In this document: positions 13,292 through 32,363 of the stretch, one piece after another | Layout of the letters: every line of letters begins with the position of its first letter | Numbering within the stretch: the first letter of the stretch is position 1 | NCBI GenBank assembly: GCA_946409855.1 | Contig: CAMJXZ010000001.1 | Location: 1 to 42,808 of the forward strand | From: an uncultured Clostridia bacterium | GTDB taxonomy: Bacteria; Bacillota; Clostridia; Christensenellales; Aristaeellaceae | Length of the DNA: 42,808 nt | Direction of reading: 5' to 3' | Program-made: the position numbers and the translations under genes | The notes under the pieces: generated by a model | Database searches by the model: none | Seen by the model: the letters and a program-made list of their open reading frames with translations, nothing else | What the model was told of the DNA's origin: nothing

Positions 13292-13320
13292 CCGTCAGGC
13301 GCAGCGGCCAAAAACGCAAG

Positions 13321-13355
13321 CCCCGGAAAGAACCATCATCCGGCTCTTTCCGGGG
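13321..13355. terminator. hairpin between convergent genes (candidate bidirectional terminator)
   Basis: CCCCGGAAAG (13321-13330) pairs with CTTTCCGGGG (13346-13355), followed by CCATTGTTCTTTT. It lies between the stops at 13291 (+) and 13417 (-). The T-tract is interrupted. Confidence 0.45.
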
Positions 13356-13416
13356 CCATTGTTCTTTTCAGGGAGGCGCGCCGCCTGAAGCGTTTCCTCA
13401 TGCCGCGGCGGCCCGC

Positions 13417-14358
13417 TCAATCATCGTAATAATGGCTTGTTTTCACTTTGGTGATGTGCTGATCCGTCCCATTCAGCGCGCCGTGGGCGGCGACGCTCCT
13501 TTTCATCGCCCGGACTTCGCTTTTGGACAGGCCGCCATAGGTCAGCTGACCCTCCAGTGCGCTTTCTTCCTCCGCGCTCAGATAAGCTGTGCTGCCGCTC
13601 ATGGATACCTTTTCCGCCGGCGAAGAATGATCCCAGGTCTCGCCAAAGGTGTTGAGAATCCATCCAAGGCCGCCCAGGACGATCACGAAGGCGATGAATG
13701 CCGGATAGAAGCAGGCCACGGTGCTGGCGGCCGCCACGATCAGCAGCGACTGCGGCAGATGCCGGAACTTTTCATAAGACGGGATCGAGACAAAGTACAC
13801 GAGCAGGCCGGCGTAAAACGATACCCGGATGCACACGGGGGTCATGGCTTCCCGGAAGAAATCCTTCATGATCAGGCCGATCACCGCTTTGAAGACCGGG
13901 ATGCCGATGTATTTCGCGGAAGCCACCGCTCCCGCCAGGCAGAGCGGGAAGCCCAGCACCGCCAGGACGATCCCCTTCGCCGTCTTCTTCTGCCGGAAGC
14001 TCCGGATGATCTGCGGGAGGGAAAACCAGATGCAGTCCGCCGCGAAGACCGGCGCTCCCCAGACGGTGAACAATTCAAAGGTCGAGAAGATGCCCTGATA
14101 GCGATAGCCCCTTTGTCCGACGGCGATCATCATGGCAATCGTTGCCGCCAGCGCGTGCATCAGGGCAAGCCCCATCCGCGATTCATCCGATGGCTTTTTC
14201 ACGGCAACCCACACCGGCCCCCCGGCCAGCACCGCCGCCAGGATAACCGCCGCGGCGGGAAACTGTTCCATCAGCACCGTATACTGACGGAGCAGAGACG
14301 GGATAAAATCAAAACTGTTCAGGAAACTGTGCAGGAGCTCTGTCAGAACGACCATCAT
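13417..14358 (-). CDS. polytopic membrane protein, function unknown
   Basis: About 8 hydrophobic helices and a soluble C-terminal tail. The ORF-track start at 14376 would place AAGGAGGG inside the coding sequence, so the ATG at 14358 (or 14355) just downstream of that RBS is preferred. Confidence 0.6.
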   Translation of the reverse strand: MMVVLTELLHSFLNSFDFIPSLLRQYTVLMEQFPAAAVILAAVLAGGPVWVAVKKPSDESRMGLALMHALAATIAMMIAVGQRGYRYQGIFSTFELFTVWGAPVFAADCIWFSLPQIIRSFRQKKTAKGIVLAVLGFPLCLAGAVASAKYIGIPVFKAVIGLIMKDFFREAMTPVCIRVSFYAGLLVYFVSIPSYEKFRHLPQSLLIVAAASTVACFYPAFIAFVIVLGGLGWILNTFGETWDHSSPAEKVSMSGSTAYLSAEEESALEGQLTYGGLSKSEVRAMKRSVAAHGALNGTDQHITKVKTSHYYDD

Positions 14359-14488
14359 GATCCCTCCTTGATGCATAACCGACCGGGTCGTCAGAAAACA
14401 GAATCACTGTCCCCTGGGGACATCCTGATGATACGGTTTTGCCGGGCCATTCTGTAAGGAGCTTTTTCCCGCGCCGGAGAGGGAAGGT

Positions 14489-14522
14489 AAAAAGAAAAGG
14501 GGCTGCAAACTGCGGCAGCCCC
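14489..14522 (-). terminator. intrinsic terminator (minus strand)
   Basis: The minus strand reads GGGGCUGC-CGCAGUUU-GCAGCCCC followed by UUUUCUUUUU. It lies ~290 nt after the stop of the upstream minus gene and ~130 nt before the start of the downstream minus gene. Confidence 0.55.
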
Positions 14523-14800
14523 TCGATTGATGGAAACAACAAAAAATTCAGCATAAAAACCAGAAACGCACAATGACCGGAAGATTCAGAGGAATCCGCA
14601 GCGGCTGGGAAGGAAAAACCTCATCCGTCACGCCTGCGGCGCAACACCTTCCCCAGTGGGGAAGGCTTTTGGAGCCTGCCGGCTGGCAGACTCCAGTGGT
14701 GGCCCGAATGGCCGGAGGAAGTAAAATGTGACTTTCCCTACAGATTACAATCCATCGGGGGGTACAGCAGTCCGTTTGCTTTTTCCATCAGCCCGGCGGC
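14523..14800 (-). ncRNA. structured intergenic RNA candidate (leader/riboswitch or sRNA), class unassigned
   Basis: Non-coding stretch with a perfect 10-bp hairpin (14671-14680/14685-14694), a perfect 8-bp hairpin (14647-14654/14658-14665) and further GC stems, ending in the terminator at 14489-14522. Strand is inferred only from that terminator and the downstream gene. Confidence 0.3.
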
Positions 14801-17580: not shown

Positions 17581-19464
17581 TTAATCCCACAGCCGCCACA
17601 GGTACTCCTTCAGCATATCAAACCCGGCTTTCATTTCCCTGTCCGCAAACTCGTTGAGCACAGCCTGGCCGTTGTTGATTTCGCTTAGCTGTCCGTTCAG
17701 GTATCCCTGCACCATTCCCTCCGGGATGGTCTGCAGCGCCGGCTGCAGCTGCGGCTTTTCCAGGCACTGGCCGATCAGGGAGGACAGCACCCCGTCCGGA
17801 AGATCCATCCCCCTGAGTTCCGAGGCGTTTCTGAATTTGGCGGCCATTTCTTTCAGAATCCGGCTCCATTCCTCCGGTTCGACGTCCATCGGATGGGCAA
17901 AGTGTCCGTACGACAGAATCTCCAGCATCTCCGCCAGCAGATGGGGAATGTACTCGTCCAGGTTCCACACGGCTTCCGTGTAAAACCCTCTTTCCGCGCA
18001 CTCCAGCCGGTATATCTCTTCCTGTTCCGGAAACGCCCAGGGCCGGTGCGCCCAGTCCAGCCCGTACGGATCCTTCAGCAGGCTCCGGGCCCGGTGCTTC
18101 AGGTGATCCGGCAGGGCAATGCTTTCAGCGCTCAGGCCGCCGCAGCCGAAGAACACATTCCGCCCGATCACCTGAACGCTTTGCGGAATCGTGACGCGCG
18201 TTAACCCCGCGCAGCCGTTGAACGCGTCGTTTTCAATGATCTCAAGGCCGTCCGGCAATTCTACGCCGCTTAAGCCGCCGCAGCCGGCAAACGCCCGGAA
18301 ACAGATCCGCCGGAGGGACGGCGGCAAAGTGATATCCGCCAGGGAGGCGCAGCCGGCAAACGCCCCGTTGCCGATCCTTTCCGTTTTGGGCATTGCCACG
18401 GTCGTAAGACACCCGCACCCGTAAAACGAGTAGCCGTAGATATATTTTGTTCCGGGGAGCGCAGCCTCTCTCAGGCTGCCGCACCCATAAAACATTCCCT
18501 GATTCAAATAACGTACTTTTTCCGGGATCCTGACCGTTTCCAGCCGATCGCAGCCGGAAAAAGCAAATTTGCCGATTTCTTCCACGCTGTCCGGAAGGAC
18601 AACGGTTTTCACGGTCCGGCAGTTCCGGAACGCGCCGTAGGCAATTTTCCGAATGCCGTCCGGCACGACAGCCGTTTCTTCCTCCCCCGCGTACCGTTTC
18701 ACGGTGTCCCGGCCGCTCAGGATCAGGTGATGCTCATCATCGATGATTTGAAAGCTTGTCCCCGCTTCCGTCCGGGTCTTCTCCAGCCTTCCGCCGGCGC
18801 AGCGGACGGAATATTCCTGAAGGTCGGCCCGGTCCATCATCTGCTCATTGAACTCGCTGACGGAGCCATCAAACCGGAATTCTTTCAGCCGGCCGCAGTC
18901 CGAAAAATTCCCCAGCGAAATCACGGAAAGGCTGCGGGGGATGGTGACGGACGACAGCGATCCGCAATGGCACACCGCACCCGGTCCAAGCCTGAGCACA
19001 CCCTCCGGAATGACATACTCAGATTCTGTTTTCCCGGGCGGATACTGGACCAGAACGGTCCCGTCCCTGCTGTACAGCACGCCGTTCACGGACATGTATG
19101 TCGTGCTGTCGGGAGACGCGTGGATCGCCCGGAGAGAGCCGCACCGGATAAAGCCGCGGGGAGAAATCTCCGAAACGCGTTTTCCGAGCCATATCTCAGA
19201 CAGACCCGGGCAGGAAAAGAAAGTGCCCATGATGATTTTCTCAACGCCGTCCCCCACCCGCACGCTTTCCAGGCAGTCACAGTTCATGAACGATTTCACC
19301 CCGACGGACACGACGCTGTCCGGAATGATCACGCGCCGGACAGTCCGGCAGTCCGTGAACGCGCCTCTGCCGATGGCGCGGACCTGTTCCGGAATGACGA
19401 CTTCTTCCTCCTGCCCCTGATACCGGGTCAGCACGCCGTCCTCTATGACAAAATCCTGATTCAT
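17581..19464 (-). CDS. BspA-type LRR (LRR_5) protein with unrecognised ~180-aa C-terminal domain, no signal peptide
   Basis: About 15 repeats such as IPEQVRAIGRGAFTDCRTVRRVIIPDSVVSVGVKSFMNCDCLESV. The C-terminal helical domain (DPYGLDWAHRPWAFPEQEEIYRLE...) is unassigned. Confidence 0.75.
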   Translation of the reverse strand: MNQDFVIEDGVLTRYQGQEEEVVIPEQVRAIGRGAFTDCRTVRRVIIPDSVVSVGVKSFMNCDCLESVRVGDGVEKIIMGTFFSCPGLSEIWLGKRVSEISPRGFIRCGSLRAIHASPDSTTYMSVNGVLYSRDGTVLVQYPPGKTESEYVIPEGVLRLGPGAVCHCGSLSSVTIPRSLSVISLGNFSDCGRLKEFRFDGSVSEFNEQMMDRADLQEYSVRCAGGRLEKTRTEAGTSFQIIDDEHHLILSGRDTVKRYAGEEETAVVPDGIRKIAYGAFRNCRTVKTVVLPDSVEEIGKFAFSGCDRLETVRIPEKVRYLNQGMFYGCGSLREAALPGTKYIYGYSFYGCGCLTTVAMPKTERIGNGAFAGCASLADITLPPSLRRICFRAFAGCGGLSGVELPDGLEIIENDAFNGCAGLTRVTIPQSVQVIGRNVFFGCGGLSAESIALPDHLKHRARSLLKDPYGLDWAHRPWAFPEQEEIYRLECAERGFYTEAVWNLDEYIPHLLAEMLEILSYGHFAHPMDVEPEEWSRILKEMAAKFRNASELRGMDLPDGVLSSLIGQCLEKPQLQPALQTIPEGMVQGYLNGQLSEINNGQAVLNEFADREMKAGFDMLKEYLWRLWD

Positions 19465-19538: not shown

Positions 19539-20708
19539 TCACACGCAGACCCATTCCACCGTCTGTGCCTCGTCCGGCATGGGCGGCACCGTTTTGTCCA
19601 GCATCCGGGCGACGGCGCTTTCCGGGACGGCGCCGGGTCTGCCAGCGTTCCGCTGCTGACGCGTCTCCGGGTCCGTCTCCAGATAGACGATCCGGACCCG
19701 GGCCCCGTACCGTTCGCACAGGCTGACGAGTTTGGCCCTGTTCTCCCTGGTCAGGCTGGTGGCGTTCCAGATGAACGGCTGCTTCCCGCGCAGATGCTCC
19801 CGGACCCGATCCCGGGCCGCCTGAACGACCGCCCCCTGTTCCTCCGTCGGCCGGACGCCCATTTCCCGCCGGATATCGTCCATGGATACCACCGGCAGGT
19901 CCGGATGATGCCGCCTGATCCAGGTATCCTTCCCGGTGCCGGGCAGGCCGGACATCATAATCACTTCTCCCCAGGTATCGTCGTACAGGCACTGGTCCGG
20001 CCCCACGTTCCGCCCGGAGAGGCAGGCCCGCGCCGTATAGCTGTTCTGAAAGCGGCAGGGGCCGCGCAGGCATCCCGCTTCCCCGGCGAGCAGCATGGAC
20101 AGCTGGATCTGCGAAAGGTATTCCTCAATATCCCCCGCGTCCCTGCCCCGGGCGTCCGCCTCGGCCAGCATGCCCGTCAGCGCCCAGGAAAAGTCCTTCG
20201 CGAGCACCCCCGCGGCAGCCGCCGTCCGGGCGCGCAAAGCCGCTTCCTCCTGATCCACCAGGTGAAACGGCACCATATGATGCCGCACCAGGGCGCAGAC
20301 GGTCTCCCGGAAGGAAAGGGCCTCCATCGTCCCGCTGAGCCCGCAGTCCCGCCAGAGGAAGATGCGGACCAGCTGACTGCCCACCGCCGCGTGATGGGGG
20401 GACACCCAGGCCCCGCCGTCCAGCCGGGTCGTCTTCGCCTTGCCCAAATCGTGCAGCACCGCCGCCAGGAACAGTTCCGTTTTTACGCGTTTATCCAGCG
20501 CGTGGAAATCAGCCTTGCGGTTCAGTTCCCCGCACACCATCCTCGTATGGGTGAGCACGTCCCCTTCCCCGTGAAACACCGGGTTCTGCGGTGTCGACTG
20601 AAGGTCCTGAAAGCAGGAAGCGGCCAGCAGGGGTCCGATCTCTTCCCAGGCGATCCGGCTGCCGGCGGAATCGGGCACGAGCCGGGCAAACCGGTGAAGC
20701 CATGTCAT
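19539..20708 (-). CDS. HD-domain phosphohydrolase fused to P-loop polynucleotide-kinase-like (AAA_33-type) domain
   Basis: N-terminus NPVFHGEGDVLTHTRMV...AAVLHDLGK is an HD domain resembling the HD of CCA-adding enzymes. C-terminus VIMMSGLPGTGKDTW is a Walker A, with IWNATS and RIVYLE strands. The ATG at 20708 lies 8 nt after GGAGG and is preferred over the GTG at 20714. Confidence 0.75.
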   Translation of the reverse strand: MTWLHRFARLVPDSAGSRIAWEEIGPLLAASCFQDLQSTPQNPVFHGEGDVLTHTRMVCGELNRKADFHALDKRVKTELFLAAVLHDLGKAKTTRLDGGAWVSPHHAAVGSQLVRIFLWRDCGLSGTMEALSFRETVCALVRHHMVPFHLVDQEEAALRARTAAAAGVLAKDFSWALTGMLAEADARGRDAGDIEEYLSQIQLSMLLAGEAGCLRGPCRFQNSYTARACLSGRNVGPDQCLYDDTWGEVIMMSGLPGTGKDTWIRRHHPDLPVVSMDDIRREMGVRPTEEQGAVVQAARDRVREHLRGKQPFIWNATSLTRENRAKLVSLCERYGARVRIVYLETDPETRQQRNAGRPGAVPESAVARMLDKTVPPMPDEAQTVEWVCV

Positions 20709-20735
20709 TTGCACCGCCTCCTTTCCTCCGTCCGT

Positions 20736-21527
20736 TCAGAACAGGCTTTCCACCGGCACGGCCAGCTGGTTGGGGATGATCGGCTTGTCGATCCAGTGCT
20801 GTTCGGAAAAGTCCACGCACTGCAGGAAGGCGGAACGTACGAACTTCATCCGGTCCACAACCCGGCCGTCCTCCTCGATCTTGATGTACAGCCCTTCCAT
20901 CATCCCGGACAGCTCGGTTTCGGCGCAGGCCTTTTCCGGATCCAGGCGGAGCTTTTCCGCCGCGTCCCGCAGATGCGCCCGCTGGCTGCCGGTGGTAAAA
21001 CGGGACTGCCCCAGCAGGCCCAGCAGTTCTTCCTTCTTCTGAAAGCAGCCGTGTCCCAGCACCGGAACGGAAACCACCGGGCTTCCTTCCAGCATTTTCT
21101 TCCGCGCCGGCGTATCCAGAAAGACGCCGGTTTCCCGGTCCAGGATGTCGAACTCCAGGAAATAGTGGGGCAGCGCGTCATAAAAAACGGTATGCTTGGC
21201 GTACAGCCACTCGCCGTACATGATGTATCTTGTCCCCAGCAGGTCATACAGCTCGTCCCGGCAGGCCACGGCCCATTGCTTCATCAGGTTGAAATGGCGC
21301 TCCCGGTAGCCGCCGGTCAGGTAATGGCCCCGGCTCTGCAGCAGCAGTTCCCCGTTTCCGTCAAAGGATACGGCGGAATTTGCCCCGTCCACCTTTTCCT
21401 CCACGGTCAGGCAGCGCCCCCTGATGGACGCGAAAGGAACCTGGCTCAGGTCCTCGTCCCCCGGCTGCAGGCGCGAGCCCTCGATATGAGGGGTGCGGGG
21501 GTATTTGCGCATTTTATACGGATCCAT
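20736..21527 (-). CDS. ATP-dependent RNA ligase family protein (covalent nucleotidyltransferase)
   Basis: N-terminal KYPRTPHI, motif I EKVDGAN (the KxDG lysine), motif III-like YGEWLYAKH, motif IV EGLYIKIE, motif V MKFVRSAF. GGAGGGA RBS lies 8 nt upstream. Confidence 0.8.
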   Translation of the reverse strand: MDPYKMRKYPRTPHIEGSRLQPGDEDLSQVPFASIRGRCLTVEEKVDGANSAVSFDGNGELLLQSRGHYLTGGYRERHFNLMKQWAVACRDELYDLLGTRYIMYGEWLYAKHTVFYDALPHYFLEFDILDRETGVFLDTPARKKMLEGSPVVSVPVLGHGCFQKKEELLGLLGQSRFTTGSQRAHLRDAAEKLRLDPEKACAETELSGMMEGLYIKIEEDGRVVDRMKFVRSAFLQCVDFSEQHWIDKPIIPNQLAVPVESLF

Positions 21528-21542
21528 CGCTGATCCCTCCTT

Positions 21543-21765
21543 ATACTGATTTTCATCTAAAACATGTGCAGATGTGGGATGGATTTTGCAGAAGAATCAA
21601 GGAAGGCATCCGAAAGCGTACCCGAAGGTCGGCGAGGGCTGTGAGGGCCCGGAAAATGATCCAGTGGATCATTTTCACCGAACAGCGGGCCGGCAGGCCC
21701 CGGAAGACGCAGAGATGGCGCAAAAGGCGCCCACAGATGTGCATGGATTGGGTGAAAATCAGTAT
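21543..21765. repeat. MITE-like inverted-repeat element, copy 1 (~223 bp, no ORF)
   Basis: Perfect 13-bp termini ATACTGATTTTCA (21543-21555) and TGAAAATCAGTAT (21753-21765), extending imperfectly to ~36 bp. Internal perfect 11-bp hairpin at 21652-21676. Core 21610-21639 is shared with copy 2. Confidence 0.6.
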
Positions 21766-21767
21766 TA

Positions 21768-22469
21768 TTATCCGATTGCCGCCACCAGGAACAGATGTCC
21801 TTCCACGCCGTCAAAATGAAGCCTGGTGCACCCGGCATCAGCGAACAAACGCGTCAGCCTGTCCTTGGTCAGCACATGTATGTGCTCCGGGTTGCTGTCC
21901 GGCTTGGACGGAACGGTCACCACCACGTACTGCCGGGCCATGCGGACCGCCGCCAGGACGGCCTGCTCCACCGCCGGGATGTGCTCCAGCACCTCCAGCA
22001 GCGTGACGACGTCAAAGCTCCCGTCCGGAAACGGCTGCCGGCAGACGTCCTTCTGCTCCGCGTGCATCTGCGGAAAACCGCCGTCCGCCAGCTCGTTGAG
22101 GAAGACGACCCGCTTTTCCAGCAGGTCCAGGCTCGTCACCCGCACCCAGGGGAATTCCTTCATGAACGGGATCAGGAACACGCCCCGGCCGCTGCCCACG
22201 TCCAGCATCGTTTCAAAGGAAACCGAATGCAGGAACCCCAGGGTCCTTTTCGTCCGGGCCAGCGTCTGCGTGCCGGCCTTGAAAGGATAGAGCTTAAGCC
22301 CCGCCTCCTGCCCCGCCCGCACGATCCGCAGGCATTCTTCCTCCGTGCATTCGTCCGCCGTTTTCCGGGCGGTCTGCGCCGGCAGCTCCGGGACGCCCGT
22401 CCTTCTGTGATGTCCCAGGATCCAGGCGGCGGCAGTTTTCAGGTCATATTTTTCCTCAAGCGTTTCCAT
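21768..22469 (-). CDS. class I SAM-dependent methyltransferase
   Basis: Motif I MLDVGSGRGVF, post-I SLDL, DVVTLLEVLEHIP. The ATG at 22469 is preceded by AAGGAGA. The upstream extension in the ORF track is R/P-rich. Confidence 0.75.
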   Translation of the reverse strand: METLEEKYDLKTAAAWILGHHRRTGVPELPAQTARKTADECTEEECLRIVRAGQEAGLKLYPFKAGTQTLARTKRTLGFLHSVSFETMLDVGSGRGVFLIPFMKEFPWVRVTSLDLLEKRVVFLNELADGGFPQMHAEQKDVCRQPFPDGSFDVVTLLEVLEHIPAVEQAVLAAVRMARQYVVVTVPSKPDSNPEHIHVLTKDRLTRLFADAGCTRLHFDGVEGHLFLVAAIG

Positions 22470-22530
22470 GGGTTTCTTTCTCCTTGCTGCACACACCGGG
22501 GCTGCCCCGCGAAAGGAAGCGCCCCCAAAG

Positions 22531-25500
22531 TCAGGCGGCCGGGTCCGCCAGCTCACGGATCATCCGGACGGTCTCCTCATACGTTTTATCGATTTCCATA
22601 AAGTCAAAGCCGTTCTCCCGGGCGTACGCTTCCGCGGTGGAGCCGGGGTAGCCGTGGATCACCGGCGGCGGATTCCTCCGCCACAGCTCTTCCCGCGTCT
22701 GCCCCGGACCGGGCGTCCAGCGGTAGAACGCCAGTTCCTCGATCACCATATCCGGCTGATAGACCCAGATGTCCACCCGGCGGCTGCTGGAAACCGCCTC
22801 GCTGGATACCTGCCGCATGCCCGGCGGCAGCACCAGGAAGCGCAGGGCGGGGCAGTTGATCAGCCCGTATCCTTCGATTTCCCTGCATCCTTCCGACAGG
22901 ATGATCCACTGGACCGGCGCCAGCGTAAACGCGTCCGAAGAGATGCTGGTCAGGCTTTTGGGCACCTCGACGCCCTTCATGCCGCATTCCTGAAACGCGA
23001 ATTCCTCCACGCCCGTGAGACGGGCGGACAGCGTCAGGTCCCGCAGGGATTCACAGCTGAAAAACGCGCCCCGGCCGATCCTGTACACGCCGCTCAGGTC
23101 GATTTCCCGGAGCGAGCGGTCTCCCTCAAACGCCCATTCATCGATGGAACGGATCTGGCCTTCCGTCCTGACCGACTCCAGCTTCGGGCAGCATGAAAAA
23201 GCGTAAGCGCCGATTTCTTCCAGCGCGCCGGGGGCGTAAACTTTCCTCAGCTCATCGCACTCATAAAACTCCGTATCGTGCACCTGGCGCTGAAAACCGG
23301 ACAGGGTGATCTCCCGCACGTCAAAAAGATATACTTCCCACGTACAGGTCACCGGGCAGTTGTCCGCCACGTTGAACCAGGGCACCCGCACCGTGTCGGC
23401 CTGCTTCGTCATGTACGCGCACTCGCCCTTCAGATCAAAGCAGTCGGACCAGCTGTCAATGTCCTCAAACCGGATGTTCGATTCCCCGGCGATCCATTCC
23501 GACAGCGTTCCCTTTCTGCCGCCGATCACGAAATCGGCGGGAAAATCGGAAAACTCCGTATAGGCCCGGGCATGTTCCCCCAGCTTCGCCCCGTCGCACA
23601 GGAACTGTACCCATTGAAGGCCGGAGCATCCGTAAAAAATGCTTCCTTCCAGCACTTCAACCTGAGCCGGCACCACCAGGTATTTGAGCTTGCTCTCCAT
23701 GAAGGCGCCCCAGCCGATCCGGCGGAGGTTCTGCGGCAGCACCAGGGTTTCCATGCCGCAGCCTTCAAACGCCATCTGCGGGATTTCCGTGAGTTCTTCC
23801 GACAGCCGGATCTCCCGCAGCGCGACGCAGTCGAAAAAAATCTCCTCGTCGATCTGCCGGACGGAATCGGGCATCCACAGCCGTTCCAGATTCCGGCAGG
23901 CGCTGAATGCCCCCTGGCCGATCCGCGTCACGCCCAAGGGCAGGGTCACATCCGCCAGCCCCGTTCCTGCAAAGGCGTCATCCCCAATCAGACGGAGGCC
24001 TTTCCCCCAGGTAATTTCAGACAGTTTTTCGCAGCCCAAAAACGCGCTTTTCCCGATCTGTTCCGTTTTTTCCCCAATCCGGACCCGGACCAGGTTTTTA
24101 TTATTCGCACAGATCTGATCCGGGATGATGAAAAGCCCGTCCGGAAATTCGATTTCCGCGGCGGACGGAATCCTGACATCCTTCCCGATCGAGACGACCG
24201 GCCGCCCGTCCACCAGGGAAGGAATGACGAGCTTTTCCGCTTCGGTTTGGAGACCCGTCAGCATAAGGCCTCCTTCCGTTTCCTCAAAGGTCATTTCGCC
24301 GCCGTCGGCGAAGCGGTGCCCGCCTGCCTGCGCGTACGCGTCCTGCACGCCATCCCGCCGGCCCCAGATGAGCAGGTCCTCCCTCGCCCCGTCAAAAACG
24401 TTCAGCCCGATGGTCCGGAGTTCCTCGTTCAGATGGACCTCCCGTAAGCCCCCGCAGCCGTAAAACGCCTGGTCCCCCAGCAACCGCACGCTTTCCGGCA
24501 GCGTCACCGCCTCCAGCGTTTCGTCCCCGCGGAACGCGTCCCGTTCCACCGCCGTCACCGGGATCCCCATCACGCTTCCCGGCAGCGTCCGCCGGGCGTC
24601 CCCGCCCCGCCACTGCCGCATGATGTGGAACCCGTCCTTCCGCAGCGAATAAAGCAGCCCCTGCCCCAGCGGCAGCCCCGTGACGAAGTTCGCGATCACC
24701 GCCGTCATCACCAGCAGCGCCGCGCAGAACGCCGTCAACAGACGCCGCCGCATCCGCCGGCGCCACCGCACCTGTTCAGGCAGCGGCAAAAGATAAAGCC
24801 CCGCCCGGAACTCCTCCATCGACTGCGTCCGCTTTTCCGGCTCCACCGCCAGCGCGTTCATCAGCGCCGCGTCCTGCTTCCTGCCCAGCTTTACCTGAAG
24901 CGCCGCCGGGGATTTGAGCTCGTCCCGCCGGGCGCGCAGCAGGGATTCCTGCGGCGCTTCCCCCGTCAGCAGCTCATAGATCACCGCCGCCAGGCCGTAC
25001 ACGTCCGACCAGGGGCCCTGCCGGCCGTATTCCTTCCCATACTGCTCCACCGGCGCGTACCCGCGGGACAGGATGATCGTTTCCCCGTGCCGCTCCGTCC
25101 GCATCGCCGCCCCGAAGTCGATCAGCCGCGCCGTTCCGTCTTCCTCCACCAGGATGTTCTCCGGCTTCAGGTCCCGGTGCACCACCCCCTGCCGGTGCAG
25201 CAGCACCAGCGCGTCCATGACCGGCCGCAGGAAAGAAAGCGTCTGGGCCGGCTGAAGCTTCCGCTCCGCCGCCCATTCGTCCAGCGGGCGGCCGTGGATG
25301 TACTCCATCACGATATACGCCGTATTGTTTTCCGAAAAGAAGTCCAGCACCTTGACCACGTTCGGGATGTCGCTGAGCGACGCCAGCAGATGGCTCTCCC
25401 GCTCAAACCGAAGCCGCCCTTCCAGGAAGACCGTCTCCTGCGCTTCCACGCAGACGACCTCGTCCGACACGCCCGTGTCCCGGGTGACCAGGTCCGAGGG

Positions 25501-25740
25501 AAAGTATTCCTTGACCGCTACCGGACGGTCCAGGTTTTCGTCCCACGCCGCGTAGGTGATCCCGAAGCCGCCCTTCCCGATGACCGCGCCCAGCTGGTAC
25601 TTGCCGTTCAAAAGGGTCCCTTCCTCCAGGACGGCCGGCGGCCGTTCCCCGCTCCCGTCAAACCCGCAGTGCGGACAGACCCCCTCTTCCTTCATTTCCC
25701 GCATGCAGCGGGAACAGTAATACTGTCCGTTGATTTCCAT
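22531..25740 (-). CDS. Zn-ribbon / Ser-Thr protein kinase / single TM / extracellular BspA-type LRR receptor kinase
   Basis: N-terminal CSRC...CPHC zinc ribbon. Kinase motifs GKGGFGITY, VAVKE, HRDLKPENIL, IDFGAA, GYAPVEQ. TM segment LLTAFCAALLVMTAVIANFV. About 700 aa of LRR_5 repeats follow (LPESVRLLGDQAFYGCGGL and similar). Confidence 0.85.
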   Translation of the reverse strand: MEINGQYYCSRCMREMKEEGVCPHCGFDGSGERPPAVLEEGTLLNGKYQLGAVIGKGGFGITYAAWDENLDRPVAVKEYFPSDLVTRDTGVSDEVVCVEAQETVFLEGRLRFERESHLLASLSDIPNVVKVLDFFSENNTAYIVMEYIHGRPLDEWAAERKLQPAQTLSFLRPVMDALVLLHRQGVVHRDLKPENILVEEDGTARLIDFGAAMRTERHGETIILSRGYAPVEQYGKEYGRQGPWSDVYGLAAVIYELLTGEAPQESLLRARRDELKSPAALQVKLGRKQDAALMNALAVEPEKRTQSMEEFRAGLYLLPLPEQVRWRRRMRRRLLTAFCAALLVMTAVIANFVTGLPLGQGLLYSLRKDGFHIMRQWRGGDARRTLPGSVMGIPVTAVERDAFRGDETLEAVTLPESVRLLGDQAFYGCGGLREVHLNEELRTIGLNVFDGAREDLLIWGRRDGVQDAYAQAGGHRFADGGEMTFEETEGGLMLTGLQTEAEKLVIPSLVDGRPVVSIGKDVRIPSAAEIEFPDGLFIIPDQICANNKNLVRVRIGEKTEQIGKSAFLGCEKLSEITWGKGLRLIGDDAFAGTGLADVTLPLGVTRIGQGAFSACRNLERLWMPDSVRQIDEEIFFDCVALREIRLSEELTEIPQMAFEGCGMETLVLPQNLRRIGWGAFMESKLKYLVVPAQVEVLEGSIFYGCSGLQWVQFLCDGAKLGEHARAYTEFSDFPADFVIGGRKGTLSEWIAGESNIRFEDIDSWSDCFDLKGECAYMTKQADTVRVPWFNVADNCPVTCTWEVYLFDVREITLSGFQRQVHDTEFYECDELRKVYAPGALEEIGAYAFSCCPKLESVRTEGQIRSIDEWAFEGDRSLREIDLSGVYRIGRGAFFSCESLRDLTLSARLTGVEEFAFQECGMKGVEVPKSLTSISSDAFTLAPVQWIILSEGCREIEGYGLINCPALRFLVLPPGMRQVSSEAVSSSRRVDIWVYQPDMVIEELAFYRWTPGPGQTREELWRRNPPPVIHGYPGSTAEAYARENGFDFMEIDKTYEETVRMIRELADPAA

Positions 25741-25759: not shown

Positions 25760-26533
25760 TCAGTCCGCCGCCCACAGTGTCTGCATGCCCTGTTCGGACA
25801 GCTTCCGGTCGATCTCCTTGGCGTCCGTCCGGTTGGCGATGCCGTTCATGATGTACATGTCCCGCTCATCCTTGACGGACAGGGCCGGGAGCTTTTCCAT
25901 TTTCAGCATGTTCTGCACCTCGGGCAGCTCCATGCCCAGCACCACGGCCATCCGGAGCAGCAGGTCCCTGGACGGAAAGCTCCTTTCCTCCACGATGTCC
26001 CGGAAATCACCGGGGGCGCACTGGGCGGCCTCCAGCAGTTCCCGGTCGCTCATGCCGCTCTTTTCCAGGTGGAAGGAGATCATGTCCCACAGATTTCCTT
26101 CTTCCTTCTGGTCGGGGTAGAGGGGCTTCTGCCCCTGCTCGGCCAGCACCTCGTCCATCGTTTCCAGGTCCAACCCGTTGGCCAGGCCGAAGATCAGGCA
26201 GATATCCCGCTTGTCCTTGGCCGACAGGGCGGCGCGGTGGGCGGTCTGCAGCATTTCCTGCGTCTCTTCCACATTCATGCCCAGCACAAAGGCGATGCGC
26301 AGCAGCAGGTCCTTTTCCGGGTGCTTGACCCCTTTCATGATGCCGTACACGTACGCCCTGCTGCAGCCGGCCAGGTCGGCCAGCGCCTCGTTGCTCATGC
26401 CGCCCATTCTGGGCAGGAGGATCTGCGGGAGCTTGCGCGACTGGCGGATGGCTTTCAGCATCTCCGACAGCGATTCCCCATGGTTCGCCCGTTCGATCAT
26501 CAGGATGGTCGTCTGTTTCTTTTCGTTGTTCAT
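25760..26533 (-). CDS. tandem (internally duplicated) XRE-type HTH regulator
   Basis: Two ~100-aa units: MSNEALADLAGCSRAYVYGIMKG...LLLRIAFVLGMNVEETQEMLQ...SAKDKRD and MSDRELLEAAQCAPGDFRDIVEE...LLLRMAVVLGMELPEVQNMLK...SVKDERD. It ends 19 nt before the kinase start. Confidence 0.7.
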   Translation of the reverse strand: MNNEKKQTTILMIERANHGESLSEMLKAIRQSRKLPQILLPRMGGMSNEALADLAGCSRAYVYGIMKGVKHPEKDLLLRIAFVLGMNVEETQEMLQTAHRAALSAKDKRDICLIFGLANGLDLETMDEVLAEQGQKPLYPDQKEEGNLWDMISFHLEKSGMSDRELLEAAQCAPGDFRDIVEERSFPSRDLLLRMAVVLGMELPEVQNMLKMEKLPALSVKDERDMYIMNGIANRTDAKEIDRKLSEQGMQTLWAAD

Positions 26534-26597: not shown

Positions 26598-28958
26598 TTA
26601 TTGATGGGTATACCGCTCCGTCCTCACGTCGTACTGCCAGACATGCCCGTCGTACCGGATGAGCACGCTGCCTTCCCGGTCGACCTGAAGATCCAGCAGG
26701 CGGACGGTGTTTCCCGCGTCATCCGTCACATCGACCACATAGCTGCCATAGTGCAGACGGCTGCTCTGCTGTTCGTCCGCCCGCATGGAAAAACCGGTAT
26801 ACAGGGGGATATCCGCGGCTTCCGGATCATCCGGCGAAAACACCCGGACTTCCTTCCATCGACCGTTCACCTGCTCCTGCAGGCGGATCACGCCCGCTTC
26901 ATACAGGTAACGGACGGCGGGCGTCTGCGTCCAGTCCAGATACGTGCAGGAACCGTCCGCGAAGAACGCGGTATTGGTGACAGCGTTCCCGTCGTTCATC
27001 TGAATCACATTGATGAACGACACGCTGCCATCTTTTTCCCGGTTCACGGAGAACACGGTGCCTTCCCAGCCGTTGATGTCCATGAAGCCGCCGTTGTTCA
27101 CGCCGTAGCTGGTGCTGCCTTCCTTGCTCTCCCAGACCACGAAGCCCCGGGGCCAGCCGGTATCGGTGGCCGCGCCGTAGAAATAATTATCCCAGACAAA
27201 GTGCCAGTTGGGGCTGTAGGTGGCCATATCGCCCAGGTTGACGAATTCCTTGGGCACATCGCACTGGCCGTATTCGTTGCCGCCGGTGGCCAGGACGGTG
27301 CCGTCCGCGAACAGCCCCAGCGTATGATAGGCGCCGGCCGCGACGGCGGTCACGCCCCGCCAGTTTTCCGTATTGATTTCGCCGTACTCATTTTTCCCCA
27401 TGGCGGTCACCGTGCCGTCCGCGTGCAGATAGACGCAGTGGTAGGTGCCGCAGGCGATGCCGCAGATATCCCGCAGGCCGTCCACGCTGATCTGGCCGTT
27501 GTTCGAGCGGCCGGCGGCGATGACGGTCCCGTCCGGATGAAGGCCCAGGGTGTTGAAATCCCCCGCGGCCATTCTGATCACATCGCTCCAGCCGGTCAGC
27601 TCGCGGCTGCCGTAGTCGTTGGCGCCGAAGGTACAGAAGGTGCCGTCCTTCATGCGCGCCGCGCTGAACAGGTACCCCGCGCAGATTTCCGCGACGCCGG
27701 ACAGGCCATCGATGTCCGCCTGTCCATAGTTGTTCAGTCCGGCGGCGTGCACCACCCCGTCGGCGTCCAGGCCCAGGGTAAAGTGGCCGCCCGCGGCGAT
27801 GGCGACGATGTTCTTCCAGTCCTGCACGTCGCACTGGCCGTCGCCGTTCTCCCCGGCCGCGACCACGGTGCCGTCCGCCCGGAGGCCCACCGAAAACCAG
27901 CTGCCGCCGGCGACGGCGACGATGTCCGTCCAGCCTTCCACGTCGCACTGGCCGGAATTGTTGCGGCCAAAGGCGCGGACGGTCCCGTCCTCCATAAGCA
28001 GCAGCGTATGGAAGCCGCCACCGTCCAGGGCGATGACCTTTTTATCGCTTCTGGGAAACGACGCCAGCAGCGCTTCCCGGCTGGGACGCAGATATGCCGG
28101 GATTTCGCAGGCGCCGTACAGGTCCGAGCTGCTCGCCGTCAGCACCGTACCGTCCGCGCGCAGGCCGACGCTGTGGCAATAACCCACGCCGACGGCTATC
28201 ACGCCCGTCCACTCGTCCACCTCGGTCATGCCGTATTTGTCTCTTCCCAGGCCGGTGACCGTGCCGTTTTTGTGCAGAATCAGGCCGCACATATCATTAT
28301 TGGCGATGTCGACGGCATCCGTGACGCCTTCAACAAGGCGCTGGTTGATCCCTGTGATCACGCTGCTCCCGTTTTCCAGAAGCCCGATCAGGGCGCTTTG
28401 GCCGGAAATCTTCTCAACGCCCTGCCATTCCTCCGCGCCCCCTGTTTGATACCCGCGGGATCCGCGCACCGTTCCGTCCTTCATCAGGGCAGCCCAGCCT
28501 CCGGAAGAAGCATGGATCGCCCGCACGCCGGTCAGGCTGCCCGGCCCGGCTTCCGGCTTCAGGCGCCCCGCCGAGTGCACATTGCCCGCCGCGTCCAGGC
28601 CGAAGGTCTGCGCGTCCATGCAGGCGACCTGGACGATGTTTTTCCAGTCCGCCACATCGCACTGGCCGTATTCGTTATCCCCGGCCGCGACCACCGTGCC
28701 GTCCGCCTTCAGCCCGACGCTGTGGCTCATGCCCGACGCGATCCCCACAATGTCCCGCCAGGAGGACACGTCCAGCTGGCCGTACGCGTTTTCGCCCGCG
28801 GCGGCGACGGTGCCGTCCTCCAAAAGGATCAGCGTATGCAGACTTGCGACAGAGATCGCCTTCGCCATCGGCTGCGCCGCCTCCTCCGCGGAAACTGAGG
28901 GGGACAGAACCGTCAAAAGCAGCATCAGCGCGGTCAGTATCACAGTAATCCGTTTCAT
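26598..28958 (-). CDS. secreted RCC1-repeat (beta-propeller) protein with unassigned C-terminal domain
   Basis: Signal peptide MKRITVILTALMLLLTVLSPSVSA. More than 12 repeats of the type H(S/T)xGLxxDGTVxAAGxNxYGQCDVxxWxxIVxIA. The last ~230 aa are non-repetitive. The ATG at 28958 lies 7 nt after AAGGAGA. Confidence 0.8.
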   Translation of the reverse strand: MKRITVILTALMLLLTVLSPSVSAEEAAQPMAKAISVASLHTLILLEDGTVAAAGENAYGQLDVSSWRDIVGIASGMSHSVGLKADGTVVAAGDNEYGQCDVADWKNIVQVACMDAQTFGLDAAGNVHSAGRLKPEAGPGSLTGVRAIHASSGGWAALMKDGTVRGSRGYQTGGAEEWQGVEKISGQSALIGLLENGSSVITGINQRLVEGVTDAVDIANNDMCGLILHKNGTVTGLGRDKYGMTEVDEWTGVIAVGVGYCHSVGLRADGTVLTASSSDLYGACEIPAYLRPSREALLASFPRSDKKVIALDGGGFHTLLLMEDGTVRAFGRNNSGQCDVEGWTDIVAVAGGSWFSVGLRADGTVVAAGENGDGQCDVQDWKNIVAIAAGGHFTLGLDADGVVHAAGLNNYGQADIDGLSGVAEICAGYLFSAARMKDGTFCTFGANDYGSRELTGWSDVIRMAAGDFNTLGLHPDGTVIAAGRSNNGQISVDGLRDICGIACGTYHCVYLHADGTVTAMGKNEYGEINTENWRGVTAVAAGAYHTLGLFADGTVLATGGNEYGQCDVPKEFVNLGDMATYSPNWHFVWDNYFYGAATDTGWPRGFVVWESKEGSTSYGVNNGGFMDINGWEGTVFSVNREKDGSVSFINVIQMNDGNAVTNTAFFADGSCTYLDWTQTPAVRYLYEAGVIRLQEQVNGRWKEVRVFSPDDPEAADIPLYTGFSMRADEQQSSRLHYGSYVVDVTDDAGNTVRLLDLQVDREGSVLIRYDGHVWQYDVRTERYTHQ

Positions 28959-29031
28959 GGTCATTCTCCTTGATGATACGGGACATTTTTATTTGAACCC
29001 GTTTTCATTATAACGGCACTCGCGCGCGGAA

Positions 29032-29883
29032 TCAAGCGGGCATTTTACCGATATTCCGGATATATTCGCCCTTGCGGACCAGCGTCCCGGTTTTTGTCCG
29101 GACGATGGCCGGGCAGCGCAGCTCGTCGTGATAATCCTCGTTCTCGATATTGAACAGGGTTTTCTTTTCCTCGGAATACGGCACGGGCGTCAGGCCATGC
29201 TGCCGCAGCAGCAGCTCCGCCATGGTCAGGCTGTAGCTGATTTCCGCCACGTCCGGCCGGTCCACCTTCGCTTCAAACAGGGAGGCGTACAGCTTCACCA
29301 GCTCGTCCTCGCACAGGTTGGCGCCGTCCAGCTGCTGGCCGCGGAACATGGCGCAGACGGCCTGGCTGTCGTTCATCAGCCTGGAGAGCTGCTTTTCCTG
29401 GCGCAGCCTGGCCCTGTCCAGATCCAGCGTGAGTTCGGCTGTTATCTGAACCTTTTCCGGCTTGTCCGCCCCGTTCTTTCTGATCAGCCCGTACACCGCC
29501 TGGCCCAGGATCAGCAGCGCGGCCAGCAGCACCCACAGCCACTGCCACTGCATGCCTCCGCCGGCGTTTTCGGCCGGGACCGGCCGCCCCGAAAGGGCGC
29601 TGATGAAGGTAAAGACGATCGCGGCGACGGACAGCGCGGCGGTGATGACCGGGCTTAACAGGATCTGATCCGGCCGGATCCTCTTCCTGCCGGGCACTTC
29701 CGCAAGTGGCGCCCGCACGGCGGCCTGCACATCGTCCATCAGGTCCAGCGCCTCGCCCTGGCGCTGCACCAGCATGCCCAGCACGCGCTTTTGCATCGTG
29801 TCCTCCAGCGTGCCGATGGCTTTGACGCCGGACTGTTTCACGTATTCCTTCAGTTCGTTTTTGCCCTTCTGCAGATACATCAT
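29032..29883 (-). CDS. 2-TM membrane protein with GrpE-like C-terminal region (tentative)
   Basis: Two central TM helices (LLSPVITAALSVAAIVFTFISAL, WLWVLLAALLILGQAVYGLI). The C-terminal segment LTMAELLLRQHGLTPVPY...FNIENEDYHDEL...TGTLVRKGEYI resembles, by eye only, E. coli GrpE LTLKSMLDVVRKFGVEVI...LDPNVHQAI...GNVLGIMQKGYTL. The start is ambiguous (29892, 29883 or 29880). Confidence 0.55.
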   Translation of the reverse strand: MMYLQKGKNELKEYVKQSGVKAIGTLEDTMQKRVLGMLVQRQGEALDLMDDVQAAVRAPLAEVPGRKRIRPDQILLSPVITAALSVAAIVFTFISALSGRPVPAENAGGGMQWQWLWVLLAALLILGQAVYGLIRKNGADKPEKVQITAELTLDLDRARLRQEKQLSRLMNDSQAVCAMFRGQQLDGANLCEDELVKLYASLFEAKVDRPDVAEISYSLTMAELLLRQHGLTPVPYSEEKKTLFNIENEDYHDELRCPAIVRTKTGTLVRKGEYIRNIGKMPA

Positions 29884-29961
29884 CGTTCCCATCCTTTCTC
29901 TTTCCGGTCCGCTTCCCCTTCTCCCGGGGACAGGTTCAGCTTATCACGTTCCCGCCTTCTC

Positions 29962-29982
29962 CCGTCTACTCCGGGTAGACGG
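29962..29982. repeat. GTCTAC-N5-GTAGAC palindrome/hairpin, copy A
   Basis: ccgtctac tccgg gtagacgg forms a perfect 8-bp stem that overlaps the stop codon (29966-29968) of the 144-aa gene. Confidence 0.5.
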
Positions 29983-30400
29983 CCGCTTTCCGCCCGGCCG
30001 GGCGCATATCCTCCGAAAGCTCCCGGCGGAGGAAGCGGGCGGTCCTGCGCAGGAGCCGCGCCTGCCGCAGCATGCCGTACAGGGCCAGGAACGCCAGCCC
30101 CCACTGAAGCAGCAGCCCGAAGGCCAGCGCCCCGCCCGTCCCGCGCTTTTTTCCGGGCCGGATCACAGCAAGGACCCGATCCTCCCCGGCGGCGGTAAAC
30201 CAGACCATCGCGGTTCTGCCCGCCAGATGACAAGCGTCCAGATCATTGCCCCTGTCCTCCCCCTGCACGACATAGGTCCCGTCCGCCGTCCGCAGGAGCT
30301 CGCACCTGAGTTCTTCTTCATCGCTCCAGTAATCCGCAAGCCGGTGCGCCAGCTGCCGGACGTTTTTCCCGGTGCGAAGACAAACGGTTTTTTCCTTCAT
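29966..30400 (-). CDS. small protein with C-terminal TM helix, function unknown
   Basis: 144-aa ORF starting 25 nt after the Hsp70-like stop, with GGAG 9 nt upstream. It has a soluble N-domain, then GGALAFGLLLQWGLAFLALYGML, then a basic tail. Confidence 0.5.
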   Translation of the reverse strand: MKEKTVCLRTGKNVRQLAHRLADYWSDEEELRCELLRTADGTYVVQGEDRGNDLDACHLAGRTAMVWFTAAGEDRVLAVIRPGKKRGTGGALAFGLLLQWGLAFLALYGMLRQARLLRRTARFLRRELSEDMRPAGRKAAVYPE

Positions 30401-30425
30401 GGCCGGTCTCCGCTTCCCGCTCGGA

Positions 30426-32363
30426 TCAGGCCACCATGGCCTGTTCCACGCCGTCGGCCGCTTCGGAAATGGCCGTATCGACGCATTCGCTGACCTGGTC
30501 CACCAGGTCCCGGACCATGCCGGCGTCGTCCATCATGCCCTGGCAGATGCCCGCGCTGATCTTCCGGCGGTTTTCCTGGGACAGGATGGAATCCGCGGGG
30601 ATCATCCGGCGCATCCAGCCGGGAATGGTCATTTTCATGATCAGGTTTCTCGCGGTATCCTTGCCCACCCAGGCTGCCAGCGCGCCCAGCAGCGCGCCCA
30701 GGATGATGCCCAGCGGGCCGGTGGCCAGCAGCGCGACGCCCGCGCCGCCGCAGATCATGGACGTGACCACGATCAGCACGACGGAAACGATGCCCTGAAT
30801 CATCCTGATGAAATCGATCGAGATGGGCGTCTGCGCGTTCCCTTCCGGCTGGATGTTCAGCTGCCAGTCATGGATGGAAAAATCCACATGGTGCCTGCGG
30901 CTGATCTCGCACAGATCCTTCTGGACGTCCAGGATGACCTGCTCGCTCCAGGGCTCCACCTGCTCCCGGACGGCCTCCTGCAGGGTGCCGGAATGCATGA
31001 ACTGGTTCATCCGGTGAGCGGCGCTCTCCTCAAACTCGCTGAGCGTGCCCACCTGCCCGTCCCGCCAGGCCTGGAAGCAGGGCTTCACGCAATGGGTCAG
31101 GATGGCGTCCGTCATGGGCTGGCTGATGCTTTCGACCAGCTGCGGCACGGCGGAGCCGACGATGTTTTCCACCGCGTCGCTTTCCACATACGCCTTGATG
31201 TCCTCAATGCAGGCCGTCATGTTTTCATCCACGCTGCCCACAAACACCAGCCCGCGGGAAATATCGTACTCGGGGCTGTCGCTGACGATGACCCGGGAAG
31301 TGCGGAACTGGCTGCGGCACAGTTCCTGGAAAAAGTGCATCCGGGACGGGCCGCCGGTCAGGACCACCAGATCGGGCACCTGCTGCTTTTTCGTCTGTTC
31401 GTAGACGGACACCAGGCTGTCCCGCAGCCGGTCCTCAAACGACTGGCCGTCCAGAAGGGGATGCGGCCTGGTGATCAGCCAGTTCTCCACGATTTCAGGG
31501 GAGAGGGTGAGCTTCACCTGGTATACCCTGCCGTTTCCAAAGAGCTTGACCGTCTTTTCCAAAGTGCGGTTTTCCGAAAGGAACAGGTCCTCGTTTCGGA
31601 AGTAATCCTCCTTCATATCACGCACCGCCAGCATCAGCCGGCTCTTCTTGCTGTCCGAGCCCTCGATCAGCGCCCGGATTTCCCGGGTCTGTTCCGGGGC
31701 CGCCGCTTCCTGCATTTCCAGGGAATGCAGCACGATCATCTCGTCCATCAGCCCGCCGCCCAGCAGCACGTTGCCCATGGTGGAAACGGCGTACTCGTTC
31801 CCGTCCTTCACGTAGGCGAAGTCCAGCGTGGAGGAACCGATGTCGATGATCAGCACCGTCTGCTCCGCCAGGTCCGGATCAATGGCGTTTTCCGTGCTGT
31901 GCAGGGCGTTTTCAAACGCCGCGCGGGATTCGGAAACGATTTTCACGTTTTTGAGGCCCGCCTCCGTCATCAGCCCCCGGTAACGCTCCCTGTCCGCTTC
32001 CTTCCAGCCGGCAGGGCAGCCCACGATAAAGCAGGCGTTTTCGGGGTCGTCCACATAAGCCCCCACGTCCTCGTTCTTCCTCAGTTCGCACAGCACGCCC
32101 CGGACAAAGTCCCGGATGACCCGGTCCGTTTCCGGGCTGCCCGAAAGGAAACGGCGCTTGAAGCAGACGTGCACATCCTCGGCGTTTTCCTGGTTTTCCC
32201 GGACCGCGTGGCCCACGATCGTATTGCCCGCGAGCTTCGCTTCGGCGCTCAGGAAACTCCCGCGCCCGCTGACGGGCACCACGTTGACCATGCCGGTGCT
32301 GCCGTCCTTCGTCCAGTGAACACAGCTTTCCCCATCGCCCAGATCAAAACCGAAATACATCAT
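30426..32363 (-). CDS. non-canonical Hsp70/DnaK-superfamily ATPase with C-terminal glycine-zipper TM hairpin
   Basis: Phosphate-1 FGFDLGDGES, phosphate-2 VLIIDIGSSTLDFAYV, adenosine motif VVLTGGPSRMHFF. No recognisable DnaK substrate-binding domain. C-terminus has VVLIVVTSMICGGAGVALLATGPLGIILGALLGALAAWVG. The ATG at 32363 lies 7 nt after AAGGAGA; the ORF-track extension is R/P-rich. Confidence 0.75.
   Translation of the reverse strand: MMYFGFDLGDGESCVHWTKDGSTGMVNVVPVSGRGSFLSAEAKLAGNTIVGHAVRENQENAEDVHVCFKRRFLSGSPETDRVIRDFVRGVLCELRKNEDVGAYVDDPENACFIVGCPAGWKEADRERYRGLMTEAGLKNVKIVSESRAAFENALHSTENAIDPDLAEQTVLIIDIGSSTLDFAYVKDGNEYAVSTMGNVLLGGGLMDEMIVLHSLEMQEAAAPEQTREIRALIEGSDSKKSRLMLAVRDMKEDYFRNEDLFLSENRTLEKTVKLFGNGRVYQVKLTLSPEIVENWLITRPHPLLDGQSFEDRLRDSLVSVYEQTKKQQVPDLVVLTGGPSRMHFFQELCRSQFRTSRVIVSDSPEYDISRGLVFVGSVDENMTACIEDIKAYVESDAVENIVGSAVPQLVESISQPMTDAILTHCVKPCFQAWRDGQVGTLSEFEESAAHRMNQFMHSGTLQEAVREQVEPWSEQVILDVQKDLCEISRRHHVDFSIHDWQLNIQPEGNAQTPISIDFIRMIQGIVSVVLIVVTSMICGGAGVALLATGPLGIILGALLGALAAWVGKDTARNLIMKMTIPGWMRRMIPADSILSQENRRKISAGICQGMMDDAGMVRDLVDQVSECVDTAISEAADGVEQAMVA

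Follow-up and report, generated by a model that had tools for sequence, protein, structure and literature searches.

A putative two-subunit membrane ATPase built on an Hsp70-type nucleotide-binding domain in Christensenellales-type Clostridia

In the mitochondrial Hsp70-Tim44-Mge1 system and in BiP-Sec63, a dedicated membrane partner brings the Hsp70 cycle to a membrane; the Hsp70s of these systems are soluble and grip translocating polypeptides by their substrate-binding domain, and the partners carry J or Tim44 domains. A locus on the minus strand of a 42,808-nucleotide stretch of DNA from an uncultured Clostridia bacterium of the Aristaeellaceae (GenBank assembly GCA_946409855.1, contig CAMJXZ010000001.1, positions 1 to 42,808; hereafter the window) encodes a 645-aa ATPase with an Hsp70-type nucleotide-binding domain (NBD) which, in contrast to these membrane-tethered motors, is itself a membrane protein and lacks a peptide-binding domain. 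Further along the same strand lies the gene of a 286-aa protein with two transmembrane (TM) helices, here called the partner. With moderate confidence, we favour the interpretation that the two genes specify a lineage-specific membrane ATPase of two subunits, which is based on an Hsp70 NBD and found mainly in Christensenellales-type Clostridia.

PilM, with PilN, and FtsA are ATPases of the ASKHA (acetate and sugar kinase/Hsc70/actin) fold that act on the inner side of the membrane together with a small membrane protein from a neighbouring gene. They are peripheral, whereas the ATPase of the window is integral; its matches to the Pfam families PilM_2 and FtsA are weak and under cutoff, and the ATPase neighbourhoods examined showed no genes for pili or division. 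Atlastin and the bacterial dynamin-like proteins have the same domain order as the ATPase, namely a nucleoside triphosphatase (NTPase) domain, a helical bundle, a membrane hairpin and a C-terminal helix, but their NTPase fold is unrelated (GTPase as opposed to ASKHA) and no similarity was detected, the likeness being an analogy of architecture only.

Closest by sequence, profile and structure is the NBD of DnaK and other Hsp70 proteins (Pfam PF00012), with which the ATPase shares the fold and the set of catalytic motifs; it differs from DnaK in being only about 20% identical, in being inserted in the membrane, and in having no linker, beta-sandwich substrate-binding domain or lid. Bacterial "DnaK derivatives", including YegD, are characterized in passages of a 2026 review, which remarks on their diversity, as Hsp70 NBDs whose substrate-binding domain is partly or wholly lost; some bear added N- or C-terminal domains, and no function is described for them there (PMC13580251); the same passages mention no stalk, glycine-zipper hairpin, membrane-inserted form or two-TM partner. 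YegD is soluble and consists of an NBD only, whereas the ATPase described here adds a stalk, a hairpin and a tail, and it does not match the YegD equivalog model (NCBIfam PRK11678/NF008673; E = 0.015, 14.2 bits, cutoff 331). No description of the ATPase family, of its partner or of a relevant membrane-anchored Hsp70-like protein in bacteria came out of literature searches. Kinship with the Hsp70-like proteins of CoCoNuT systems was considered and rejected, as these have substrate-binding domains and McrBC partners (PMC11090510) and occur in an unrelated context.

The nucleotide-binding domain, stalk and membrane hairpin of the ATPase

The minus strand from 29032 to 32363 holds three consecutive open reading frames (ORFs) that encode, in order of transcription, proteins of 645, 144 and 286 aa, with gaps of 25 nt between the first two and 73 nt between the second and third (Table 1); the three genes are as described in an initial annotation made by a model from the sequence alone. 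The gene of the 645-aa ATPase (N-terminus MMYFGFDLGDGES) is real, because the database holds an identical protein (P0001) and 899 homologues at E <= 1e-5; among the 120 of these that were listed, most are full-length, at about 630-650 aa. Homologues of the ATPase together with the partner are found in at least 78 species-level genomes, and as each of the three genes has homologues, all three are real.

The ATPase domain is of the Hsp70 type and not of the ParM/MreB type. HSP70 is the sole Pfam family that the 645-aa protein matches above its cutoff (30.6 bits; cutoff 20.6), and it is matched by 49 of the 52 family members aligned (best E = 2.3e-12). Searched against PDB sequences, the family profile finds DnaK NBDs at 6.6e-14 over residues 4-374, all PDB sequence matches of the ATPase being Hsp70 NBDs. 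For the AlphaFold2 (AF2) model (mean predicted local distance difference test score (pLDDT) 82.7, predicted template modelling score 0.74), each of the 50 matches listed by Foldseek is an NBD of DnaK, Hsc70 or BiP (E about 1e-13, about 20% identity), in alignments that span about 400-440 columns. The protein contains the nucleotide motifs picked out in the initial annotation (FGFDLGDGES, IIDIGSSTLDF and LTGGPSRMH), with core residues that vary little or not at all in the alignment of 52 sequences. D7 of the phosphate-1 motif (DxGDGES), K69, E145 (in SESRAA), and D174, T179 and D181 of the phosphate-2 motif (DIGSSTLD) are all invariant in this alignment and at least 90% conserved across the 78 loci surveyed below, and the adenosine motif TGGxSRM is invariant. 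The counterparts of the six residues in the catalytic and phosphate-binding set of Hsc70 are D10, K71, E175, D199, T204 and D206, respectively; K69, the lysine of an FKR motif, is aligned with K71 of the Hsc70 AKR motif at a low posterior probability.

The ATPase might instead polymerize in the manner of MreB, FtsA or ParM as part of an actin-like membrane cytoskeleton, in which the two-TM protein would be an adaptor comparable to PilN or RodZ. Hsp70 is its best match by every method, however (Pfam, PDB profile and Foldseek), which sustains the earlier grouping with Hsp70 rather than with ParM/Alp proteins; and although matches below the Pfam thresholds run through the family (ParM_N in 49 of 52 members, MreB_Mbl in 30, and MreB-like_C, FtsA, Actin and PilM_2 in 5-14 each), the ATPase of the window itself stays under the cutoffs of MreB_Mbl (23.7 bits; cutoff 27), ParM_N (20.7; 27.4) and FtsA (13.3; 31.8), and its PilM match is likewise under cutoff and weaker than that to HSP70. 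The invariant lysine of the FKR motif and the predicted subdomain IIB, which like that of Hsp70 is large and combines helices with a beta hairpin, point the same way. Some database records call members of the family "rod shape-determining protein", and attachment to the membrane together with a bitopic or polytopic partner is typical of actin-like membrane systems, but with these features set against the better fit to Hsp70 we consider an actin-like cytoskeleton improbable.

Past residue 363, AF2 predicts helices only, the interdomain linker, the beta-sandwich substrate-binding domain and the helical lid all being absent, so that the absence of a DnaK-type substrate-binding domain from this protein, already remarked on in the initial annotation, is upheld. 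In keeping with the model, the Pfam HSP70 match stops at profile position 237 of 599, and the PDB matches stop at the NBD. What follows the NBD is a stalk of four long helices, in which W433 and W472 are invariant, then a poorly predicted linker, and then a glycine-zipper hairpin that may be transmembrane or re-entrant; no Pfam family matches the stalk region, and neither Pfam nor PDB yields a match for the C-terminal half of the protein. The hairpin has Kyte-Doolittle peaks of 2.46 and 2.07 on either side of an uncharged turn (GG..GP), a zipper of the form G552xxxG556xxxG560, and basic flanks that hydropathy places on the cytoplasmic side. Its mean column conservation is 0.55, compared with 0.58 for the NBD, and C538, G539, G540, G542, G549, P550, G552 and G556 are at least 90% conserved; because it is conserved about as much as the NBD, we take the hairpin to be more than an anchor. 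The ATPase had been described as ending in this hairpin, which is present, but a partly conserved helical tail of about 80 aa comes after it, opening with a basic stretch and containing the conserved residues P581 and R585.

The two-transmembrane partner and the extent of the conserved unit

One genome per species was scanned, giving 78 distinct ATPase loci, and the partner was sought by hidden Markov model (HMM) among all ORFs of these loci, nearly all of which come from metagenome-assembled genomes (MAGs) labelled Clostridia, Christensenellales, Christensenellaceae, Aristaeellaceae, Limiplasma or Oscillospiraceae. In 72 of the 78, the partner gene directly adjoins that of the ATPase in the same orientation, lying upstream of it in 71 and downstream in one (L012); it is found 2.3 kb upstream in one more (L069) and was undetected at the search threshold in five (L010, L011, L014, L043 and L061), among which L043 is a truncated locus with a weak partner fragment. 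The stop-to-stop ORFs of the pair mostly abut or overlap (the called genes of L005 share 4 nt), and the pair is kept even where its members stand several kb apart, as in L069 and in L088, where the order is partner, helix-turn-helix (HTH) protein, BtpA, further genes, ATPase and small protein. ATPase relatives at 34-42% identity have directly upstream a 260-283-aa protein without Pfam matches, which is homologous to the 286-aa protein of the window (BLASTP 1e-17 and 2e-5) and shares with it the C-terminal motif PAIV...G.LV.RG. The pairwise identities of the ATPase and partner families correlate with r = 0.96, which fits co-inheritance and is no proof of binding.

The conserved unit is a pair, because adjacency of the partner is widespread and the 144-aa gene occurs in close relatives only. 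The dedicated membrane partner proposed in the initial annotation is thus borne out, whereas the triad proposed there is not: by tblastn against all fetched loci, the 144-aa gene is limited to the window and four close relatives (L007, L010, L011 and L014; 35-40% identity), where it is always the next gene after that of the ATPase. Its product has a single hydrophobic segment (residues 89-107 by hydropathy) with basic residues on either side, so that the earlier description of the 144-aa protein as tail-anchored can stand only as tentative. The usual gene order of the pair is the opposite of that in the window and is inverted in the window, L007 and L012. The order in the window is derived, with an accessory small gene and an inserted gene for an RCC1-repeat protein.

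All-against-all clustering of flanking ORFs found no further conserved neighbour of the pair; an rluB-like gene recurs in 27 loci and rplU/rpmA-like genes do so in about 11-12, a synteny with housekeeping genes at the level of the lineage. The ATPase gene is single-copy at most loci examined. At L081 (5887-9913), two ATPase-family genes stand in tandem after one partner gene (E = 2e-173 and 2e-125), which looks like a lineage-specific duplication. Four loci with the pair in its usual order (L023, L024, L049 and L068) come from records labelled as Bacteroidaceae, Alloprevotella or Fusobacterium MAGs, for which mislabelling or mis-binning seems more likely than a true occurrence outside Clostridia.

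The partner is a two-TM protein, as first annotated, with hydrophobic segments at residues 82-100 and 119-137 by hydropathy. Its AF2 model (pLDDT 74 overall, about 90 in the C-terminal third) consists of an N-terminal helical hairpin, the two TM helices with a short outer loop between them, and a C-terminal domain in which a 54-residue helix and a second, short one precede a small beta domain of six strands. Conservation in the protein is highest in this beta domain (column conservation 0.53, with F247, P261, A262 and G275 invariant) and, among the structured parts, lowest in the TM helices (about 0.32). Both ends of the partner are probably cytoplasmic, its TM helices probably act as anchors, and its C-terminal helix-plus-beta domain is likely to be a docking or regulatory surface for the ATPase. 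Sequence searches with the 286-aa protein of the window gave no match in Pfam, NCBIfam, PADLOC or PDB. A second word-indexed homologue search, made with the partner profile, brought in just two sequences; more informative was an exhaustive HMM search, which among 1.84 billion representative proteins recovered no more than 115 relatives, those of full length measuring about 245-335 aa and carrying no extra domains.

GrpE (PF01025) resembles the partner in its helix-helix-beta outline and in a genetic link to an Hsp70-type NBD, and the initial annotation had likened the partner's C-terminus to it, which would make the locus a dedicated membrane Hsp70/exchange-factor machine with the 286-aa protein as a membrane-anchored, GrpE-like nucleotide-exchange factor for the ATPase. 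The AF2 outline, in which a long and a short helix are joined to a small beta domain, agrees with this proposal, as does the position of that outline in the best-conserved part of a protein encoded near an Hsp70-type NBD; yet the partner differs from GrpE in its two TM helices, in its N-terminal helical hairpin and in having no sequence, profile or Foldseek similarity to it. In Pfam, GrpE is not matched by the window protein at E <= 1 and is absent among the 25 families listed of the 86 matched by 58 partner homologues; the partner family profile finds no GrpE chain among PDB sequences at E <= 10. The hhalign probabilities are 0.25% against E. coli GrpE (a query checked against 1DKG, 400 bits) and 1.7% against a profile of three GrpE sequences (E. 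coli, Geobacillus and human, taken from PDB alignments), no better than chance, and the sole weak alignment falls on the very stretch singled out in the initial annotation. Of the 50 PDB matches that Foldseek lists for the full-length model, none is GrpE (best E = 0.54), and in BFVD and PDB together it finds nothing under E = 0.5 and lists no GrpE. The order of conserved strands is also different, RxPAIV preceding GxLVxKGxY in the partner and KGYxL preceding RPAxV in GrpE, and nucleotide exchange, which in a chaperone cycle serves a peptide-binding domain, would have no such domain to serve in the ATPase. Kinship with GrpE thus has no support, the predicted fold being like that of GrpE in outline only; a convergent or very remote relationship may exist, with nothing here to favour it, and a GrpE-like exchange-factor machine has, in our estimation, a low probability. 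With regard to J-domains, the HPD tripeptide is in none of the three proteins, as had been said, comparison of the partner profile with the DnaJ J-domain by hhalign yields a probability of 0.05%, and neither a J-protein nor GrpE was found among the genes around the ATPase, a result whose scope is the local neighbourhood and not the rest of the genome.

Table 1. Positions of the three genes, of the predicted parts of their products and of neighbouring genes in the window
Feature	Position	Strand	Basis
645-aa membrane-inserted Hsp70-like ATPase gene (stop codon included)	30426..32363	-	ORF; database homologues; AF2 model
NBD of ATPase, Hsp70 type, residues 1-363	31275..32363	-	Foldseek; PDB profile match; invariant catalytic residues
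Helical stalk of ATPase, residues 364-490, four long helices	30894..31274	-	AF2 pLDDT 80-94; conservation
Glycine-zipper transmembrane or re-entrant hairpin of ATPase, about residues 519-566	30666..30809	-	Kyte-Doolittle; column conservation
C-terminal helical tail of ATPase, residues 567-645	30429..30665	-	AF2; hydropathy; conservation
144-aa small protein, clade-specific accessory gene	29966..30400	-	ORF; hydropathy; homologues in four loci
286-aa two-TM partner gene, conserved second subunit	29032..29892	-	Homology to ATPase-adjoining gene of distant relatives; adjacency
N-terminal cytoplasmic helical hairpin of partner, residues 1-58	29719..29892	-	AF2 helices 2-27 and 32-54, pLDDT 82-88
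TM1 (residues 81-101), short outer loop and TM2 (116-141) of partner	29470..29652	-	AF2; hydropathy
C-terminal cytoplasmic domain of partner, residues 158-281	29050..29421	-	AF2 pLDDT about 90; conservation
Secreted RCC1-repeat protein with signal peptide (context only)	26598..28964	-	Pfam RCC1_2 at 1.9e-70
Double-HTH regulator, 257 aa (context only)	25760..26533	-	Pfam
Ser/Thr kinase with BspA-type leucine-rich repeats, 1069 aa (context only)	22531..25740	-	Pfam

Neighbouring genes and other features of the window

Upstream of the ATPase gene, and divergent from it, a radical-SAM/SPASM maturase gene stands beside a sulfatase gene. The RCC1 and receptor kinase genes lie downstream as the initial annotation described them, but a functional link with the ATPase does not follow, as the RCC1 gene is in none of the related loci examined and the kinase and HTH genes are found near the module in the close clade only (L007, L014, L088 and L089), in shuffled order. 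A sigma-70-like promoter match (TTGATT, 17-nt spacer, TATAAT; 10 of 12 positions) at 29007-29035 on the minus strand overlaps the stop codon of the partner gene and lies just ahead of the RCC1 gene, and it suggests that RCC1 is a separate transcription unit.

In the close clade, a 257-260-aa protein with two HTH_31-like halves is encoded directly after the partner gene (L007, 4310-5092; L088, 5279-6052; L089, 4688-5461); in the window the RCC1 gene is inserted between the two. The HTH proteins of the window and L088 are 74% identical, compared with 48% for the partners. In L089 the partner and HTH genes are followed by further genes, the kinase gene and then the end of the locus. BspA-type leucine-rich repeat (LRR_5) proteins, stand-alone or fused to a kinase, recur near the module in several relatives; examples are those encoded in the window at 17581-19464 (minus strand) and by the kinase gene of Table 1, and in L009 at 12018-14720.

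A signalling or conflict module formed with the receptor Ser/Thr kinase, the double-HTH regulator and the secreted RCC1 propeller, in which the ATPase might for example be a kinase-regulated effector, would account for the retention of the ATPase, small protein, partner, HTH and kinase-LRR genes within about 10 kb in the close clade despite rearrangement, and for the placement and 74% identity of the HTH gene just described. Outside that clade, which is to say in most of the 78 loci, the pair has no recurring kinase, HTH or RCC1 neighbour, clustering of flanking ORFs of the wider family gives no recurrent kinase or HTH cluster, and the neighbours are often housekeeping genes; RCC1 is found in the window only, behind a promoter-like site of its own. 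Such a module is accordingly very improbable. A defence system was rejected, since none of the three proteins matches any PADLOC defence family at E <= 1.

Just downstream of the kinase gene, at 19539-22556 on the minus strand, are genes for a protein with HD and AAA_33 (polynucleotide-kinase-like) domains, an RNA ligase and a methyltransferase, which also flank the partner gene in L088; we take their domain content to recall the Pnkp/Hen1-type RNA repair cassettes. At 4001-6000 the G+C content of the window falls to 0.41, compared with about 0.62 elsewhere, and the ORFs of this island (4002-5144 on the plus strand and 5549-6922 on the minus strand) encode a DUF6273 protein and a 457-aa protein without a Pfam match; the island may have been acquired horizontally.

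Proposed mechanism and significance

If the locus does encode a two-subunit membrane ATPase, the ATPase and its partner would form a complex in the membrane, and binding and hydrolysis of ATP would open and close the lobes of the NBD as in Hsp70. The stalk might relay this movement to the glycine-zipper hairpin, which would then alter its packing or its oligomeric state within the bilayer, and the C-terminal domain of the partner would dock on the NBD or the stalk and tune the ATPase cycle. The output could be gating, membrane remodelling or the handling of membrane proteins, among which we make no choice. As the neighbours of the pair vary and are often housekeeping genes, and as the ATPase is mostly single-copy, a constitutive function in the cell envelope is suggested over a mobile or defence role.

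Several points weigh against this interpretation. The partner is missing from three loci of the window's own close clade (L010, L011 and L014) and is not within 6 kb of the ATPase gene in L061. Vertical co-inheritance by itself would likewise yield adjacency and correlated divergence of the two genes. The AF2 model of the ATPase has pLDDT below 50 at residues 501-515, in the linker that precedes the hairpin, and again at 539-553, in the turn of the hairpin, and because the stalk, hairpin, tail and partner match no characterized family, it is from the architecture of the two proteins that coupling to the membrane is proposed.

A bolder form of the two-subunit membrane ATPase would be an undescribed class of membrane machine, in which an Hsp70-type ATPase without peptide binding drives a glycine-zipper hairpin by way of the stalk, as an ATP-gated pore, a membrane remodeller or an extractor of membrane proteins, while the two-TM partner regulates the nucleotide cycle through a new exchange-factor-like fold, the whole serving a core envelope role in Christensenellales; this we put forward tentatively and regard as unlikely.

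The interest of the ATPase and its partner comes mainly from the tight conservation of the pair and the strong constraint on the hairpin. With its fixed architecture, constant partner and narrow host range (Christensenellales-type gut Clostridia), the ATPase family is a clean case for study, and the partner family, hitherto unannotated, gains a binding target that can be tested. Hsp70 NBDs are usually discussed as the motors of peptide-binding chaperones; should their ATPase cycle prove to be coupled to the membrane hairpin, these Clostridia would have put the Hsp70 motor to a new use.

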